Of a stretch of 64,000 nucleotides of DNA, positions 5,086 to 59,689 are shown piece after piece. The DNA is taken from assembly GCA_041661765.1 (NCBI GenBank), contig JBAZTV010000002.1, positions 8,083 through 72,082 on the forward strand. Direction: 5' to 3'. Position 1 is the first letter of the stretch. Every line of letters starts with the position of its first letter. The translations under genes and the position numbers were made by a program. The notes beneath the pieces were generated by a model. That model was not told the origin of the DNA, searched no databases, and saw only the letters and a program-made list of their open reading frames with translations. This DNA is from Candidatus Shapirobacteria bacterium. Lineage in GTDB: Bacteria; Patescibacteriota; Microgenomatia; UBA12405.

Positions 5086-5820
5086 ATGTCATCAACTAAA
5101 CCTGTCTCAAAACGCCTATTCATAGGCAGTTTACCTTATCGGTTCACCGAAGGGGAGCTACTTTCTATTTTTATCACCGAAGGTAAAATTGTCTCCATTC
5201 GCATTGTTAATAATCGCTGGGGCAGAAGCCGTGGTATGGCTTATGTTGAATATGAAAACCTCGAAGATGCCATTCGAGCCAAAGAAAAATATCATAATTA
5301 TTTCATTAGTGATCGCACTATTATTGTTGATTATGCAGAGCCCGATCCTTATTTAACCGAAGAAGGCAAAGCTCGTCACGAAGAATCAGTAGAAAAACAT
5401 CCAAATCGTCGTCAAGCTCAAGTTTTTTTACCTCATCCCGACAGTGATGTTTCCGATTATCAACAACAAAAAAAATCTCTTGATAATCGTCAATATCCAC
5501 CTCGCCAAGCATCTTCGGCTCGTCTATCAGTTCCAAAAGAAGAAAGAAAACCCCGCAAATACAAAGGCGGTAAACCTGTTTTTAATTCTCTAGGTAGATC
5601 GTTAAACCGAAATACTACTGGCGAATATGTCCCCAAATTTTTTCCTACCACTGCCGCCGCTTCTCCAAATAAAAAGAAATTTCGCCCAAAGATGGGTCAA
5701 AAACCAGAATATAAATCCAGTTCTGATCTTCATGTCCGAACAACTGTTTTTAAACAACGATCTTTTGGTTCCAAAGTTGGCGCTAAATTCGCCTTCAAAA
5801 CCAAAAAAAAACAAAGATAA
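5086..5820 (+). CDS. RRM-type RNA-binding protein with a basic low-complexity C-terminal tail
   Basis: RNP-2 LFIGSL and RNP-1 RGMAYVEY. The C-terminus is K/R/P/S-rich. Confidence 0.75.
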   Translation: MSSTKPVSKRLFIGSLPYRFTEGELLSIFITEGKIVSIRIVNNRWGRSRGMAYVEYENLEDAIRAKEKYHNYFISDRTIIVDYAEPDPYLTEEGKARHEESVEKHPNRRQAQVFLPHPDSDVSDYQQQKKSLDNRQYPPRQASSARLSVPKEERKPRKYKGGKPVFNSLGRSLNRNTTGEYVPKFFPTTAAASPNKKKFRPKMGQKPEYKSSSDLHVRTTVFKQRSFGSKVGAKFAFKTKKKQR

Positions 5821-5826
5821 ATTAAA

Positions 5827-5875
5827 GCCTCCCTGTCAAGGGAGGTGGTCTGAAATTTAAGACCGGAGGGTTTTA
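5827..5875 (+). repeat. GC-rich double-hairpin intergenic element, family copy a
   Basis: gcCTCCCtgtcaaGGGAGG, then ggtctgaaatttaagacc, then gGAGGGTTTTaaa. Confidence 0.6.
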
Positions 5876-5897
5876 AATACTTAATAAACTTTACAAC

Positions 5898-6956
5898 TTG
5901 ACAAACTTTCTAAATAAAAAAAATATAATTGCCCTCGCCCCCATGGACGGCATCACCGACGAAGCCTATCGTCTTCTTCAATCTGAAATTGCCAAGCCTG
6001 ATTTACTTTTTACTGAATTTGTCAGTGCTGAAGGCATCAGTCATGGTGGAGTTAAATTATACGACACTCTTTTATTTTCGGCCAAAGAACGCCCAATTAT
6101 AGGCCAATTATTTGGCAAAAATCCGGAAAGTTTTTATAAATCCGCCATTATTTTATCCGAACTGGGTTTTGATGGCATCGACATCAACATGGGTTGCCCC
6201 GCCAAAACTGTCACTCAAAATGGTAGTGGCGCTGCTCTTATTGCTAAACCAGATTTAGCTGTCGAAATAATCCAGGCCACTAAAAAGGGGATTGATGACT
6301 GGTTTTCCGGCAAAATCAAAGTCACTGGTCTCGGCCTTAATCAAAAAAGTCTGGCAGTTATCGAAAGAAACAAAAAATATTCTGGCATTGTAGAGACGCA
6401 TTGCAATGCGTCTCTACATAAACTCCAAAAACCAACCATCTCTGTTAAAACTCGCCTTGGAATTTCTGAATCAATTATTGAAATCTGGGCATCAATTTTA
6501 TTAAACCAAGACTTAGATTTTTTAACCATTCACGCTCGCACCCTCAAACAAGGTTATGCTGGATCTGCCGATTGGTCTGAAATTAAAAAAGTGTCGAAAT
6601 TAGCCAAAAATACTAAAACCAAAATTTTTGGCAACGGTGACGTTCAATCAAAATCTCAAGGTATAGAATTTTGCCAAAAGTACGGCGTTAATGGTGTTTT
6701 AATTGGCCGAGCTGCTTGTGGCAATCCTTGGTGTTTTAACGATTATACCGCCACTCCAAAAGAGCGATTTTCTGCCATGCTTCTTCATGCCCAATTTTTT
6801 ACCGAAATTTTCCCCAATCGTCGTTTCGACAGTCTTCGCAAAAACTTTTTATTTTATGCCTCTGGTTTGATCAATGCAAAACAATTAAGGTCAAAATTAG
6901 TCCGATTAAATTCAATTGAAGATCTTTTACAACTTGAAGCCGACTTTCAATCCTGA
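5898..6956 (+). CDS. dus: tRNA-dihydrouridine synthase (Dus family)
   Basis: IALAPMDGITDEAYR N-terminal motif. TIM-barrel FMN pattern ...GFDGIDINMGCPA... and ...HARTLKQGYAG... Confidence 0.8.
   Translation: MTNFLNKKNIIALAPMDGITDEAYRLLQSEIAKPDLLFTEFVSAEGISHGGVKLYDTLLFSAKERPIIGQLFGKNPESFYKSAIILSELGFDGIDINMGCPAKTVTQNGSGAALIAKPDLAVEIIQATKKGIDDWFSGKIKVTGLGLNQKSLAVIERNKKYSGIVETHCNASLHKLQKPTISVKTRLGISESIIEIWASILLNQDLDFLTIHARTLKQGYAGSADWSEIKKVSKLAKNTKTKIFGNGDVQSKSQGIEFCQKYGVNGVLIGRAACGNPWCFNDYTATPKERFSAMLLHAQFFTEIFPNRRFDSLRKNFLFYASGLINAKQLRSKLVRLNSIEDLLQLEADFQS
6389..6418. repeat. Perfect 30-bp palindrome tgtagagacgcattgcaatgcgtctctaca embedded in frame in dus, encoding (I)VETHCNASL(H)
   Basis: The sequence equals its own reverse complement. 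It shares the core tgtagagacg / cgtctctaca with the intergenic palindrome at 29526-29564. Confidence 0.7.
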
Positions 6957-15270: not shown

Positions 15271-15307
15271 CCCCTCCTTGTCAAGGGAGGGGTCAGGGGT
15301 GGGTTTT
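15271..15307 (+). repeat. GC-rich hairpin element, family copy b, in a divergent promoter region (not a terminator position)
   Basis: CCCCTCCttgtcaaGGGAGGGG, then tcaGGGGTGGGTTTTTat. Confidence 0.55.
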
Positions 15308-15351
15308 TATGTTATCCTATAAACACAATTAATTATTAATTTAAAATTTTT

Positions 15352-24731: not shown

Positions 24732-24775
24732 GCCCTGTTAAGGGAGATGTCCCGCACCGCGGGACAGAGGGTTTA
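24732..24775 (+). repeat. GC-rich double-hairpin element, family copy c (plus orientation between two minus-strand genes)
   Basis: gCCCTgttaaGGGag, then atgtcccgcaccgcgggaca, then GAGGGTTTaaa. Confidence 0.5.
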
Positions 24776-24780
24776 AATCA

Positions 24781-27524: not shown

Positions 27525-29516
27525 ATGCTTTTCCAGCTAAATTCACCATTTCAGCCATCAGGCGATCAACCTCAAGCTATCGACAAATTAGTCGATAATC
27601 TTTCGTCTGGAATCAAACGCCAAACCTTACTTGGTGTCACTGGTAGTGGAAAAACATTTACTATTGCCAACGTCATTCAGAAAACCCAATTACCAACTTT
27701 AATTATTTCCCACAATAAAACTTTAGCTGGTCAACTTTACCAAGAGTTTAAAGAACTTTTTCCCGATAACAAAGTTTCCTATTTTGTCTCCTATTATGAT
27801 TATTATCAACCTGAGGCTTATGTTCCAGCCTCTGACACCTACATTGCCAAAGAAGTTCAAATTAATGATTTAATTGACCGTCTTCGACTCGAAGCTTCAT
27901 CCAATCTTTTATCTGGTAATGACAATATCGTCATCGCATCGGTCAGTTGTATCTACAATATCGGCGATCCAACTGAATTTGAAAATCGAGCTTTAGACCT
28001 AAAAATAAGTAAAAATTATTCTCGTCGTCAACTTTTTGAATCTTTCATTAATCTTTTTTACACTCGTTCTGAATCAGAATTTAAACGTTCCACTTTTCGG
28101 GTCAGGGGAGAAACCATTGAAATTTGGCCATCCTACACCGATTCATTTTTGTCACTCGAGTTTCAAGACGAAAATCTAATTAAAATTACTCAAAATCACC
28201 CATTTTCCGGTCAACAAAAATTATTAGAAGATTTTAAACTTTTTCCAGCCAAACAATATGTCGGCGGTGACAAAAATTTAACCGAAGTTTTTAAAACTAT
28301 TAGAAAAGACTGTACTAAACAAGTCGAACTTTTTAAAAAGCAAAATAAAATTTTAGAAGCCCATCGAATCGAACAGCGGGTCGAATATGATTTAGAAATG
28401 CTCCAAGAAACCGGCTATATTAACGGCATTGAAAACTATTCAATTTATTTTGACAATAATCGAAAACCTGGCGATCCACCATATACTTTAATTGATTATT
28501 TCCGTCACCTATGGGGAGATAATTTTTTAACCATCATTGATGAATCACACGTTACTGTTCCTCAGGTTGGTGGTATGTTTGGCGGCGATTTTGCTCGCAA
28601 AACCAACTTAGTCGATTTTGGTTTTCGGCTACCGAGTGCTCTTGATAATCGACCATTAAAGTTTGAAGAATTTAATACAAGAACATCCAAAATTATTTAT
28701 GTTTCCGCTACTCCCTCAAAATACGAAATTGAAGATTCTAAAAAGCATATTATTGAGCAAATTATTCGCCCTACTGGTTTAGTTGATCCTCAAATCACTG
28801 TTAGACCCAGTAAAAATCAAATTCCAGATTTAATTGAAGAAATAAAAAAACGAGTTATTAAAAAAGAAAGAGTTTTAATTACTACTCTCACTAAGCGTAT
28901 GGCTGAAGATTTATCTGCTTTTTTATCCGATCCAGATAAAACCAGTACTGATTTTAAAGTTGCTTATCTTCATTCTGATATTGTCACTTTGGAACGTTCT
29001 AAAATTTTAGATGATTTACGTTCTGGAAATTATGATGTTTTAATTGGTATTAATCTTTTACGCGAAGGTCTAGATTTACCAGAAGTCAGTTTAGTTGCTA
29101 TTCTTGATGCCGATCAACAAGGATTTTTGAGATCAAAATCAGCTTTAATTCAAACCATGGGTCGAGCTTCTCGCCATCTCGACGGCCAGGTAATTTTATA
29201 TGCTGACTCTGTTTCTGATGCTATGGACGGAGCCATCAAAGAAGTCAATCGTCGCAGAAAAATCCAATTAAAATACAACAAAGACCATAACATTACTGCC
29301 CAATCAGTGGTAAAATCTATTCGTCCCCAAATCATTGAAATGATAAAAACCGAGACTAAACCAGAGTGGTTTAAGATTGATGTTTCATCTTTAACTCCAC
29401 CTCAACAATTTAAATATATTAAAGATCTAAAAAAACAAATGCGCAATTTTGCTTTTGCTTTAGATTTTGAAGAAGCCATTAAAATTAGAGACAAAATCAA
29501 AGAACTTGAAAAATAA
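27525..29516 (+). CDS. uvrB: Excinuclease ABC subunit B
   Basis: LLGVTGSGKTFT Walker A, helicase motifs, C-terminal UVR domain (...EEAIKIRDKIKELE). Confidence 0.9.
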   Translation: MLFQLNSPFQPSGDQPQAIDKLVDNLSSGIKRQTLLGVTGSGKTFTIANVIQKTQLPTLIISHNKTLAGQLYQEFKELFPDNKVSYFVSYYDYYQPEAYVPASDTYIAKEVQINDLIDRLRLEASSNLLSGNDNIVIASVSCIYNIGDPTEFENRALDLKISKNYSRRQLFESFINLFYTRSESEFKRSTFRVRGETIEIWPSYTDSFLSLEFQDENLIKITQNHPFSGQQKLLEDFKLFPAKQYVGGDKNLTEVFKTIRKDCTKQVELFKKQNKILEAHRIEQRVEYDLEMLQETGYINGIENYSIYFDNNRKPGDPPYTLIDYFRHLWGDNFLTIIDESHVTVPQVGGMFGGDFARKTNLVDFGFRLPSALDNRPLKFEEFNTRTSKIIYVSATPSKYEIEDSKKHIIEQIIRPTGLVDPQITVRPSKNQIPDLIEEIKKRVIKKERVLITTLTKRMAEDLSAFLSDPDKTSTDFKVAYLHSDIVTLERSKILDDLRSGNYDVLIGINLLREGLDLPEVSLVAILDADQQGFLRSKSALIQTMGRASRHLDGQVILYADSVSDAMDGAIKEVNRRRKIQLKYNKDHNITAQSVVKSIRPQIIEMIKTETKPEWFKIDVSSLTPPQQFKYIKDLKKQMRNFAFALDFEEAIKIRDKIKELEK

Positions 29517-29525
29517 TAATTTAAT

Positions 29526-29564
29526 ATCTTGTAGAGACGTCCCGGCGGGGCGTCTCTACAAGAT
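29526..29564. repeat. Intergenic 14-bp-stem palindrome atcttgtagagacg-tcccggcgggg-cgtctctacaagat, related to the in-frame dus palindrome
   Basis: Shares the tgtagagacg core. No flanking T-run in either orientation. Confidence 0.6.
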
Positions 29565-29581
29565 CAAAAACCAACACAAAA

Positions 29582-32254
29582 ATGCTAGACAAAATAATCG
29601 TTAAAGGTGCTCGAGAAAACAATCTAAAAAATATTTCTTTCGAGTTTCCCAAAAATAAAATGACCGTTTTTACTGGAGTTTCCGGCTCTGGTAAATCTAG
29701 TATGGCTTTTGACACTCTTTTTGCCGAAGGTCAGCGTCGCTATGTCGAAAGTTTGTCGTCATATGCTCGTCAATTTTTAGGCAATATGAAACGGCCAGAC
29801 ATTGATTTAATTGAAGGATTATCTCCATCTATCGCCATAAATCAAAAAGCTATTTCTCATAATCCTCGTTCCACTGTTGGCACTGTCACTGAAATTTATG
29901 ATTATCTTCGTTTACTCTTTGCCAGAATTGGTCATCCACATTGTCCAAATTGTGGTCGCGAAGTTTCCCCTCAAACAAGTAAACAAATTGTTACTCAAAT
30001 TTTAGACATCGCCCGTCTTCAAGCTCACGGCTTAAACATATATCGAATTTTAATTTTAGCCCCAATTGTTCGTGATAAAAAAGGCGATTTTCATGGTTTA
30101 GTTGAAAATTTAAGAAAACAAGGTTATAAATGGCTCCGTGTTGACAATCATATTATCGATCTTTATTCAGATTTTGGCATTGCCAAAACAAATAAGCACA
30201 ATATAGACACTGTCGTTGACCGACTTTCTATTAATAAAGATAATTTTAAAGATGAAAAAGCTATTTATGATCGTCTTATTAATGATGTTGAACAGGCCAT
30301 GAAACTATCCAATGGTCTAATTATTGTTTCTGAAGTTAAAGATCCAGGTTTTACTTTTCCTGATAATCCAAAAGAAATGGCGGACACTCTTTATTCAGAA
30401 AATTATGCCTGTCCTATCTGTAATATTTCACTCCCAGAAATTGAACCACGTCTTTTTTCTTTCAATTCTCCTCAAGGCGCCTGTCACGAATGTAAAGGTC
30501 TCGGATCCAAATTTCAAATCGATCGTTCCCAATTCCCCGAGTGGAAAGCCAAAATGCTCGAGGGTCGTTATATCAGTTCTCAAAGCGATGGAGTTCGCGA
30601 AGAACTGGAAAAATTTATGATTAAAGAAGAATGTTCAGCTTGTCACGGTTCTCGTCTTAATTCAGAAGCTTTATCGATCACTGTTTTAGGAAAAACAATT
30701 TACGAGATATCCACTCTTCCCATCGAAAAACTTGAAATTTGGATTAATAATCTTGAATTAGAATTACAAAATAACATAGAAAAAGAAATTGTTGCTCCCA
30801 TAAAAAAAGAGTTATTTGGTCGATTACAATTTTTATTGGCTGTTGGCCTTGATTATTTAAGTCTTGATCGTGAAGCTGGAACCCTATCCAGCGGTGAATC
30901 TCAGCGCATTCGTTTAGCTAGTCAAATTGGCACTGGGTTGACTGGAGTTTTATACATTCTCGATGAACCAACCATAGGTCTCCATTCTCGTGACAACGAT
31001 CGTCTCATCGGTACTCTCAAAAAATTAAAAGATTTAGGCAACACTGTTGTTGTTGTAGAACACGACGAAGATGTCATTAAAAATGCCGATCATATCGTTG
31101 ATTTTGGCCTCTATGCCGGAAAGCTTGGTGGTGAAATTGTTGCCCAAGGCAGTTTGGAAGAAATAAAAAATAATAATAATTCTTTAACCGGAAAATATTT
31201 ATCAGGTAAATTAAAAATCGAATCAAAAACTAAAGATGTCCCCCTTGTCAAAGGGGGATTTAGGGGGATTGAAATCACCAACGCTCGTCAATGGAATTTA
31301 AAAAATATAAATGTCGAATTTCCTCTCAATAAATTAATTTGTGTCACTGGTGTCTCTGGTTCAGGTAAATCAACTTTAATTCATGACACACTTTATGGTG
31401 GCGTTCGCAAATCTACCCTCGGTGTTTATTATGGAACCATTGGTCAGTTCGATAAAATAACTGGTTGTGAAAATGTTTCAGATGTTCTTCTGGTTGATCA
31501 ATCTCCAATTGGTCGCACTCCAAGGAGTAATCCCGCCACCTATACCAAAGTTTTCGACGATATTCGTGTTTTAATGGCTCAAACCATTGAAGCCAAATTA
31601 CACGGTTTCAGTCAGAGTCGTTTTTCTTTCAATGTCAAAGATGGTCGCTGTCCAGTTTGTGAAGGTCAAGGTCAAATAAAAATTGAAATGCAATTTTTGT
31701 CCGATATTTACGTTACTTGCGATGAATGTCACGGCAGTCGTTTTAAAGAGGAAACGTTAGAAGTCGATTATAAAGGAAAAAATATTGCTGAAATTTTAAA
31801 AATGACTATCGACGAAGCTCTTGAGTTTTTTAAAAATATTCCAAGTTTAAGGCGAAAATTAACTACCATTCAAGATGTAGGTCTTGGTTATTTAGAATTA
31901 GGTCAACCATCTAACACTCTTTCTGGAGGAGAATCTCAACGACTCAAAATCAGTCGTGAATTAGTCAAAAAATTTGATGGAAAAATGCTTTATATTCTCG
32001 ACGAACCAACCACTGGTCTTCATTTTTACGATGTCGATAAATTAATTAAAGTTTTGCGTCAATTAGTTAATAACGGTAATACTGTCGTTCTAATCGAACA
32101 CAATTTAGATGTTATCAAAAATTCAGATTGGATCATTGATCTCGGTCCAGAAGGTGGTGAAAAGGGTGGGGAAGTTGTTGCCATCGGTACCGTCCAAGAT
32201 GTAATGAAAGTTGCCAAAAGTTACACCGGTCAATATCTTAAAAAATCAACCTAA
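29582..32254 (+). CDS. uvrA: Excinuclease ABC subunit A
   Basis: Two ABC ATPase modules (GVSGSGKSS... and GVSGSGKST...) and Zn-finger CxxC pairs. Confidence 0.9.
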   Translation: MLDKIIVKGARENNLKNISFEFPKNKMTVFTGVSGSGKSSMAFDTLFAEGQRRYVESLSSYARQFLGNMKRPDIDLIEGLSPSIAINQKAISHNPRSTVGTVTEIYDYLRLLFARIGHPHCPNCGREVSPQTSKQIVTQILDIARLQAHGLNIYRILILAPIVRDKKGDFHGLVENLRKQGYKWLRVDNHIIDLYSDFGIAKTNKHNIDTVVDRLSINKDNFKDEKAIYDRLINDVEQAMKLSNGLIIVSEVKDPGFTFPDNPKEMADTLYSENYACPICNISLPEIEPRLFSFNSPQGACHECKGLGSKFQIDRSQFPEWKAKMLEGRYISSQSDGVREELEKFMIKEECSACHGSRLNSEALSITVLGKTIYEISTLPIEKLEIWINNLELELQNNIEKEIVAPIKKELFGRLQFLLAVGLDYLSLDREAGTLSSGESQRIRLASQIGTGLTGVLYILDEPTIGLHSRDNDRLIGTLKKLKDLGNTVVVVEHDEDVIKNADHIVDFGLYAGKLGGEIVAQGSLEEIKNNNNSLTGKYLSGKLKIESKTKDVPLVKGGFRGIEITNARQWNLKNINVEFPLNKLICVTGVSGSGKSTLIHDTLYGGVRKSTLGVYYGTIGQFDKITGCENVSDVLLVDQSPIGRTPRSNPATYTKVFDDIRVLMAQTIEAKLHGFSQSRFSFNVKDGRCPVCEGQGQIKIEMQFLSDIYVTCDECHGSRFKEETLEVDYKGKNIAEILKMTIDEALEFFKNIPSLRRKLTTIQDVGLGYLELGQPSNTLSGGESQRLKISRELVKKFDGKMLYILDEPTTGLHFYDVDKLIKVLRQLVNNGNTVVLIEHNLDVIKNSDWIIDLGPEGGEKGGEVVAIGTVQDVMKVAKSYTGQYLKKST

Positions 32255-56293: not shown

Positions 56294-56336
56294 GCCTCCT
56301 TGTCAAGGGAGGCCTCTCTGACGAGGGTGGGTTTTT
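56294..56336 (+). repeat. GC-rich double-hairpin element, family copy d
   Basis: gCCTCCttgtcaaGGGAGGc, then ctctctgacgagg, then GTGGGTTTTTac. Confidence 0.6.
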
Positions 56337-56391
56337 ACTTAAGAAAAGTTTATTTTTTTGTTATACTGAATTATTAGATTTTAAAATTAAA

Positions 56392-59638: not shown

Positions 59639-59640
59639 AA

Positions 59641-59682
59641 AGCCTCCCTGTCAAGGGAGGTGCCCGAAGGGCGGAGGGTTTT
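59641..59682 (+). repeat. GC-rich double-hairpin element, family copy e1
   Basis: aGCCTCCCtgtcaaGGGAGGt, then gcccgaagggc, then gGAGGGTTTTaaa. Confidence 0.6.
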
Positions 59683-59689
59683 AAACACC

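Follow-up and report, generated by a model that had tools for sequence, protein, structure and literature searches.

Probable double-foot GTAG REP elements within dus and between uvrB and uvrA of a Candidatus Shapirobacteria bacterium

A 64,000-nucleotide (nt) stretch of contig JBAZTV010000002.1 from a Candidatus Shapirobacteria bacterium (hereafter the window) carries two related palindromes, one within dus, the gene for a tRNA-dihydrouridine synthase, and one between uvrB and uvrA. Both are very probably copies of a 'double-foot' GTAG repetitive extragenic palindrome (REP), a non-autonomous hairpin of 28–30 bp that is cognate to the subclass 2.4/group 4 REP-associated tyrosine transposases (RAYTs), which are HUH/Y1 enzymes. 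Each strand of the element has a 5' foot of GTAG; the lower stem, GTAGAGACG/CGTCTCTAC, is conserved, and the inner part varies but is self-complementary. It is of a known kind, while the host lineage, the genes concerned, the in-frame position and a turnover at hot spots that a second element family also occupies are new. An odd palindrome in a coding sequence is now assigned to the REP/RAYT system of subclass 2.4, and this system appears to extend to the candidate phyla radiation (CPR), or Patescibacteria, whose genomes are usually thought to be poor in mobile DNA. No description of REPs in CPR/Patescibacteria was found in the literature searched.

Two palindromes in the window and their sites in relatives

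The palindrome in dus occupies positions 6389–6418, with no strand assigned, and reads TGTAGAGACGCATTGCAATGCGTCTCTACA, which is identical to its own reverse complement; its 28-bp core, GTAG...CTAC, lies at 6390–6417. The host gene (5898–6956, forward strand) encodes a PF01207 protein whose nearest relatives are named Candidatus Shapirobacteria (CPR/Microgenomates). The frame is kept through the element, where the codons GTA GAG ACG CAT TGC AAT GCG TCT CTA specify VETHCNASL, residues 165–173 of Dus. The palindrome, its place in dus and the peptide that it encodes in frame had been described in an initial annotation made from the sequence alone and were confirmed when the sequence and the open reading frame (ORF) were re-read. 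Its claim that the palindrome lies far beyond chance also holds. By our own calculation, 64 kb of sequence at 32% GC should contain about 4e-4 perfect 30-bp palindromes, and the 10-mer TGTAGAGACG occurs four times in the window against 0.04 expected, a count that 0 of 100 shuffles reached. Folded as single-stranded DNA (ssDNA), the dus hairpin has an energy of -13.9 kcal/mol (z-score -7.6). In an alignment with Thermotoga maritima Dus (1vhn), residues 11–117 and 173–345 pair with 7–110 and 121–299, leaving 118–172 unaligned. Residues ~118–172 are accordingly an extra, lineage-specific segment relative to 1vhn, and the REP is located at the C-terminal edge of this segment.

The second copy (29526–29564, no strand assigned) is found within the 65-bp spacer between uvrB (27525–29516, forward strand; UvrB, UvrB_inter, UVR and Helicase_C domains) and uvrA (29582–32254, forward strand; UvrA domains), starting 10 nt past the uvrB stop codon. 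Its core at 29530–29560 is TGTAGAGACG TCCCGGCGGGG CGTCTCTACA, and the stem is lengthened by 4 bp through the complementary flanks ATCT/AGAT. The arms are 19 nt long with one mismatch, the outer 14 bp being perfectly paired, and the ssDNA fold has an energy of -18.0 kcal/mol (z-score -9.1). The sequence and the domain matches agree with the earlier description of this copy as a sibling of the first with a 14-bp stem, placed between uvrB and uvrA and sharing its 10-mer core. Both copies read (T)GTAG...CTAC(A), that is, a 5' foot of GT[AG]G with a complementary 3' C[TC]AC, and at 30 and 39 bp both are short palindromes able to form a stem-loop, as REPs are. No further copies of the 10-mer or the hairpin are present in the window, even with two mismatches allowed. 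An intrinsic (Rho-independent) terminator was considered for the intergenic copy and rejected, as the initial annotation had also concluded: no T-run adjoins the hairpin on either strand (flanks ...aatatct[hairpin]caaaaacc...), and the other copy is within a coding sequence.

The Dus site was compared across 120 Shapirobacteria homologues of 69–100% identity, in which it forms a hypervariable spot between ...RNKKYSxI and KPTISVKTRLG. A check that the initial annotation had proposed shows the 10 residues encoded by the palindrome to be lineage-specific: a short, element-free linker of 7–9 residues (e.g. GVQNKKIK) is present in 42 of the 120. REP peptides with covarying middles (VETHCNASL, VETHHDASL, VETLHATSL, VETYCNTSL, VETLRATSL and others) are carried by 22, and about 44 contain peptides of an unrelated double-hairpin element, here called family B (SLPVKGGARRAEGF, SPFVKGRCPEGTERI, SPSSRGESASGGEGF); the remainder have other inserts or remnants. 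At the DNA level the site is empty in locus L121, holds REPs with the inner parts TATTGCAATA, TTGCATGCAA and CATCATGATG in L122–L124, and holds family B in L125–L127. Even Dus proteins that are more than 90% identical carry different elements, be it family B, an unclassified insert or REPs that differ in their inner parts, which amounts to fast turnover at this site.

At the uvrB/uvrA junction the two genes overlap (ATGA) and lack the hairpin in three relatives (L282–L284); the REP would have split a junction at which both genes once overlapped. In L281, the nearest relative (UvrB 90% identical), the corresponding place is filled by a REP with the inner part TTTTGCAAAA. Between the window and L281 (~2105–2140) the flanks and outer stems are conserved, whereas the inner 10–11 nt (TCCCGGCGGGG versus TTTTGCAAAA) differ nearly everywhere. 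This pattern points to a probable swap in place, by replacement or conversion, and not to divergence by point mutation or to simple vertical descent. Relatives carry REPs at three further sites, namely the RRM-dus spacer (L121, L124), the inside of uvrA (L281) and the uvrB/uvrA junction (L281).

Both window copies are insertions, with presence/absence polymorphism at both sites, and the behaviour initially proposed, that of a small palindromic element which tolerates in-frame insertion, is borne out. At the Dus, uvrB/uvrA and UvrA sites, nature provides filled, empty and swapped alleles with which the movement of 30-bp elements could be studied. For annotation purposes, peptides of the form VETxxxxSL or xRDxxxxVST flag REP insertions and should not be taken for conserved motifs.

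The hairpin family and its link to RAYT transposases

Genomes, one per species, were scanned with TGTAGAGACG-N2-22-CGTCTCTACA, which gave at least 120 loci (L001–L120), and metagenomes were scanned with the exact YATTGCAATR inner variant (GTAGAGACGYATTGCAATRCGTCTCTAC), which likewise gave at least 120. The shared core, taken in the initial annotation as a sign of mobility, does recur beyond the window, genomes and metagenomes each giving more than 120 loci. The hairpin has the form (T)GTAGAGACG + 10–11 variable nt + CGTCTCTAC(A) and is present in at least 10 phyla. Among the loci listed, Cyanobacteria (Nostoc, Calothrix, Coleofasciculus and others) and Bacteroidota dominate; Ignavibacteriales, Kapaibacteria, Acidobacteriota, Chloroflexi, Planctomycetes, Deferribacteres, Desulfobacterota, Gammaproteobacteria and one Parcubacteria metagenome-assembled genome are also represented.

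Among the matches listed for L001–L120, the inner part measures 10 nt in 96 of 128 hairpins and 11 nt in 26. The scan left this part unconstrained, yet its five pairs are Watson-Crick in 76–96% of cases compared with 29–46% after shuffling. Across the 54 distinct 10-nt variants each inner pair position shows three or four pair types, including some G-T wobbles. Such compensatory changes are typical of REPs, and the inner variants found in Shapirobacteria are CATTGCAATG, TATTGCAATA, TTGCATGCAA, CATCATGATG, CCAGATCTGG and TTTTGCAAAA. The central four inner nucleotides of these 128 hairpins are themselves palindromic (CATG, ATAT, AATT, GCGC and others) in 76–78% of the distinct variants.

Around the 123 metagenome copies the flanks are not conserved, with T at -1 in ~47%, and the palindrome stops at GTAG...CTAC in 90 of them; the unit is therefore the 28–30-bp hairpin alone. 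The identical 28-mer of the dus REP is found on more than 120 metagenome contigs. The contigs recovered with YATTGCAATR range from 25 to 64% GC and come from many taxa, and this inner variant is therefore not specific to Shapirobacteria. No target-site duplication could be identified, the flanks of the Dus site being too diverged and no conserved pattern being seen across the 123 copies. Literature searches with the literal GTAGAGACG/CGTCTCTAC returned only primers and unrelated matches, and Rfam gave no match at gathering thresholds for the whole window, nor at E<=1 for positions 5700–6500.

Starting from an ORF beside the hairpin in Nostochopsis, homologues were identified in 6 of the 120 genome loci, and RAYT-like ORFs are present in 7 of the 120 metagenome loci together with two fragments, both counts being among the matches listed. 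In most such loci the hairpin adjoins or sits inside a RAYT 2.4 ORF, while in L111 it is ~2.4 kb away. The physical association of REP and RAYT that defines a REPtron is established by these loci of the hairpin family and not by the window itself. The ORFs match NCBIfam NF047646 ('REP-associated tyrosine transposase') with E values of 1e-12 to 1e-17, below the curated cut-off, as well as Pfam Y1_Tnp; full-length ORFs were needed, an 86-aa N-terminal RAYT fragment giving no Pfam match. Their motifs are MPNH[VIF]H, WQ and YIxNNP. By the definition of Quentin et al. (2018, PMC6006769), TnpA-REP subclass 2.4, which is Bertels' RAYT group 4, has the motifs NH[IFV]H, WQ and YIxNNP, has 'double foot' REPs with 5' GT[AG]G and 3' C[TC]AC, and is the only subclass with in-frame REP insertions within tnpAREP. 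The motifs of the RAYT ORFs match those of this published subclass, and the element therefore fits the double-foot REP class.

In-frame insertions are also evident in the RAYT proteins, which hold the REP-coded peptides VETHRDASL, CRDGVHTVST and VETPCMASL; several contain VETHCNASLQ, the peptide that is also present in the window Dus. A simple pattern search found REP-type peptides in 19 of 120 database RAYT homologues. Hairpins can be dense around such genes: in L072, three RAYT copies or fragments are surrounded by 10 hairpins, nine of which share one inner sequence, and L073 has four along with partial copies.

RAYT 2.4 is present in CPR bacteria as well, with homologues whose source names are Microgenomates group, Magasanikbacteria, Moranbacteria and Peregrinibacteria. 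In all four CPR proteins (P0125, P0153, P0183, P0219) a REP-coded VET[SP]RR[DG]VST is found between the HuH and Tyr motifs, always in the same place. The Microgenomates RAYT gene (L280, on a 30% GC contig) sits among housekeeping genes and contains TGTAGAGACGTCCCGTCGGGACGTCTCTACA; this sequence and the window core at 29530–29560 differ by 2 nt. The REP of L280 (8591–8620) is the sole one in 18.9 kb, and a REP inside a CPR RAYT gene could serve as a resident 'master copy'. We infer that a RAYT encoded elsewhere in the genome or lineage placed both window copies.

Several further observations were made on the family. Half-copies of the REP, consisting of the 3' or 5' arm (e.g. ...NNCGTCTCTAC), are found from a few to ~20 nt from a full copy in L011, L020, L028, L052, L056, L073, L088, L100 and L102; the dus gene of L124 has a 3' half-copy, ...ACGTCTCTAC, ~20 nt past its REP. 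Such half-copies recur in Cyanobacteria, Bacteroidales and Shapirobacteria and may be the footprint of a copying mechanism. Taken with the central palindromy and the swap of the inner part in place, they hint at foldback copying or copy-choice at conserved stems. At other loci the REP sits exactly in the middle of a longer palindrome, or of a bidirectional terminator, that existed before it, e.g. aaaaaaccgccatac[REP]gtatggcggtttttt, as in L090 6996–7025 (Parcubacteria), L047 534–563, L096 714–743, L106, L094 and L110, and hairpin tips may be preferred as targets. In Nostocales the REP is often inside a larger conserved asymmetric flank, ttaaatatgcgttacccagaaccct[REP]ttctttttcggagatgtctaat, a composite resembling a miniature inverted-repeat transposable element (MITE); this arrangement was seen in L005, L012, L015, L041, L048, L095, L105 and L114, and in the opposite orientation in L036, L086, L105, L117 and L119.

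In-frame REP peptides (VETHHGASL, CRDAPWRVST, VETHCNASLH, VETFPETSL) were noted in large ORFs of cyanobacteria and other bacteria, at L103 ~4294 (1338-aa ORF), L113 ~5575 (874-aa ORF), L203 3324–3351 (UvrA) and L026 ~5861. By the look of the sequence only, we take the L103 ORF to be ChlH/CobN-like and that of L113 to be HypF-like, as candidate labels. The hairpin pattern was also present in 32 IMG/VR viral contigs (L248–L279), none of which contained a RAYT-like ORF, and phages may carry REP copies between hosts.

Mechanism, alternative explanations and related systems

By analogy with HUH/Y1 enzymes and with E. coli TnpA-REP, a REP exposed as ssDNA would fold into its hairpin, and a RAYT would then recognise the GTAG foot and the stem and cut and rejoin the single strand. 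The hairpin would thereby be copied, moved or exchanged. Two of the three frames through the REP are open on either strand (VET...SL and xRD...VST), while the third reads TAG. The dus copy survives because its 30 nt amount to 10 codons, because it is placed in one of the two stop-free frames and because it falls in a lineage-specific, length-variable segment of Dus. More generally, an insertion should persist only if it is in frame, free of stops and in a permissive loop, which fits the copies in Dus, in UvrA (L203, L281), in the large ORFs of L103 and L113 and in RAYT genes.

Several points weigh against movement of the window copies by a RAYT. With a profile built from six RAYT-like ORFs, hmmsearch gave no RAYT-like ORF in the 64-kb window or in L121–L127 (~131 kb of Shapirobacteria DNA), the best E value of 3.7 being not significant; the uvrB loci L281–L284 (~36 kb) were not searched. 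With two REP copies only in 64 kb, the genome does not appear to be REP-rich. The inner part was swapped between the window and L281 despite shared flanks, and the palindromy of the central four nucleotides goes beyond what hairpin selection needs; foldback copying, or a dyad symmetry of the duplex, is suggested by it. We know of no direct demonstration, in any system, that RAYTs drive REP movement in vivo, the main support for the mechanism coming from the E. coli enzyme, which cleaves and rejoins DNA in vitro. The GTAG of the E. coli co-crystal is unpaired, while that of the window copies can pair with CTAC.

It is plausible, though on balance rather unlikely, that the two copies are inert relics, either inherited vertically or swapped from strain to strain by homologous recombination or template switching at the 10-bp stems, with no transposase active in the lineage today. 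Such an explanation would leave the identity as REPs unchanged and would differ in current activity only. The lack of a RAYT in the window and in L121–L127, the low copy number and decayed remnants at the Dus site ('GSVETPQK' in P0036, 'ESFPKT'/'ESLSKT' in P0006/P0014) are consistent with it, and the replacement of the inner part with retention of the flanks between the window and L281 would fit copy-choice at shared stems. It is harder to reconcile with the fast turnover implied by the different elements in Dus proteins more than 90% identical, and with the RAYT 2.4 of the Microgenomates group that contains a near-identical REP. We consider it improbable that the palindromes are host-selected structures, that is, mRNA-stabilising or terminator-like RNA hairpins or protein-binding DNA sites, in place of selfish DNA. 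One copy does follow the uvrB stop by 10 nt, the inner stems include G-T wobbles, and many REPs have been argued to act as RNA elements (PMC3733652). Against this, there is neither a T-run nor an Rfam match, one copy is contained in a coding sequence, close relatives lack the element at both sites, and the same hairpin is present in unrelated genes and spacers of many phyla and clusters at RAYT genes.

A derivation from IS200/IS605, as an end-hairpin remnant or a miniature derivative (a palindrome-associated transposable element, PATE, or MITE) for which a classical TnpA(IS200), in place of a RAYT, would be the mobilising enzyme, appears very improbable. The associated proteins do match Pfam Y1_Tnp and, weakly, NF033573 IS200, and the fold and ssDNA chemistry of the two enzymes are the same. 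Their best family match is nevertheless the REP-associated transposase, and their motifs are NH[VIF]H/WQ/YIxNNP and not the DH[VI]H/Y[IV]ENQ of subclass 1.1. The unit itself is symmetric at 28–30 bp, has no distinct left and right ends, and its conservation ends at GTAG/CTAC, with unrelated flanks; a PATE would have different subterminal hairpins on its left and right, around a longer non-coding body. The initial annotation had also raised a match of the stem to a restriction or nicking site. The stem does contain two outward-facing CGTCTC sites, the BsmBI/Esp3I recognition sequence, but these explain nothing about the element: GAGACG is commoner in the window than expected (17 sites versus 7.1) and is not avoided, and the conserved stem runs past the hexamer. 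The restriction/nicking-site explanation was dropped on these grounds. They count equally against a cloning scar or assembly artefact, which the GAGACG...CGTCTC arrangement of both copies, resembling a Golden Gate stuffer, might otherwise call to mind; an artefact can be practically dismissed, being already refuted by the same structure in hundreds of independent assemblies from many phyla.

As double-foot GTAG REPs, the window copies can be set beside the systems already described. The double-foot REPs of PMC6006769 are alike in their 5' GTAG and 3' CTAC feet, long perfect stem and in-frame insertions, including those inside the transposase gene, in the NH[IFV]H, WQ and YIxNNP motifs of the associated proteins, and in their taxa, mainly Cyanobacteria and Bacteroidetes plus scattered phyla. 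The host here differs in being a CPR bacterium (Shapirobacteria); 'Patescibacteria' is absent from the text of that paper and its available passages make no mention of CPR. Low copy number, no RAYT in the window and hot spots that a second element family also uses set the present copies apart from those REPs as well. Di Nocera et al. (2013, PMC3733652) reported GTAG-tagged REPs from eight phyla, tied to RAYT genes ('REPtrons') and showing compensatory stem changes, with in-frame intragenic copies of which many affect uvrABC or genes for tRNA modification. Those REPs and REPtrons, including E. coli REP/TnpA-REP, resemble the present element in the 20–40-bp palindrome, terminal GTAG, compensatory changes and G-T wobbles, in the uvr and tRNA-modification genes that hold copies in frame, and in the repeats on either side of RAYT genes (PMC3733652). 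Classical REPs have a single unpaired GTAG at one end, and their units are often dimers 20–100 bp apart; in the window REP, by contrast, the tag is present on both strands and paired, which resembles a minimal fused dimer.

The Rickettsia palindromic elements (RPEs), to which the initial annotation had likened the palindrome, offer an analogy only, being palindromic selfish DNA of a reduced genome that has entered housekeeping genes without breaking their frame. The likeness does not extend to identity, the present element belonging to the GTAG-tagged REP/RAYT system. RPE-1 is 100–150 bp long. Membership among RPEs was rejected for an element of 28–30 bp that is GTAG-tagged and found in at least 10 phyla, as against the CGTC tag and the restriction to Rickettsia. 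RPE sequences end with CGTC, and RPE-4 and RPE-6 have been placed in CGTC families (PMC3733652). CGTC repeats have no associated transposase, and RPEs show no sequence similarity to the window REP. The small dispersed repeats (SDRs) of Nostoc, which Elhai and colleagues reportedly described in 2008, are said to be hairpin-forming mobile repeats of 21–27 nt in Nostocaceae with compensatory changes and nested insertions. Many of our hairpin matches are in Nostocales, some of them in the MITE-like flank, and the resemblance to SDRs is one of description.

A second hairpin family at shared sites

Family B is a double-hairpin element of ~45 nt, CCTCCCTGTCAAGGGAGG-[second hairpin]-GGAGGGTTTT, that is unrelated to the GTAG REP. 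It can be written roughly as GCCTCCCTGTCAAGGGAGG-T-[short hairpin]-GGAGGGTTTT; a variant that has one hairpin reads CCCCCTTGTCAAAGGGGG-TTTA-GGGGGA. Copies in the window are located at 5825–5872, ~15271–15310, 24735–24780, 31237–31270, ~56295–56340 and 59640–59685, and others are present in L122, L124, L125, L126 and L127. They occupy spacers, often right after a stop codon, and are also found in frame in Dus and UvrA, the window uvrA carrying a family-B' hairpin in frame at ~31237–31270. Beyond Shapirobacteria DNA, family B was represented by one match to the first-hairpin pattern (L242) among ~270 other loci. It has no Rfam match. Family B has apparently not been described before, no description being known to us without a dedicated literature search.

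The GTAG REP, family B and the empty state alternate between closely related strains at three sites: the Dus loop (window 6389–6418 versus L121–L127), the RRM-dus spacer (window 5825–5872 versus L121 1–30 and L124 9960–9989) and UvrA at about residue 550 (window 31237–31270 versus L281 ~3803). This alternation suggests common insertion hot spots or the replacement of one element by the other. As a tentative generalisation, which we hold to be possible but doubtful, two unrelated hairpin families and empty sites may alternate at three or more positions in the very small genomes of closely related CPR strains, with insertion targeted to a structure or site or with the elements replacing each other. 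If this were true, hairpins might for example act as landing pads, or copy-choice might occur at conserved stems, the alternative being random insertion filtered by selection; family B would then be a new CPR-specific mobile element without a known transposase. The alternation with family B, itself possibly undescribed, is the part of this work most worth following up.

Apart from these elements, the count of DnaA-box motifs across the window is not above chance and no switch in GC skew is present in it; at 406–451 three DnaA-box-like 9-mers (TTATCCATA, ATATCCACA, TTATCCATA) form a 21-nt inverted repeat.

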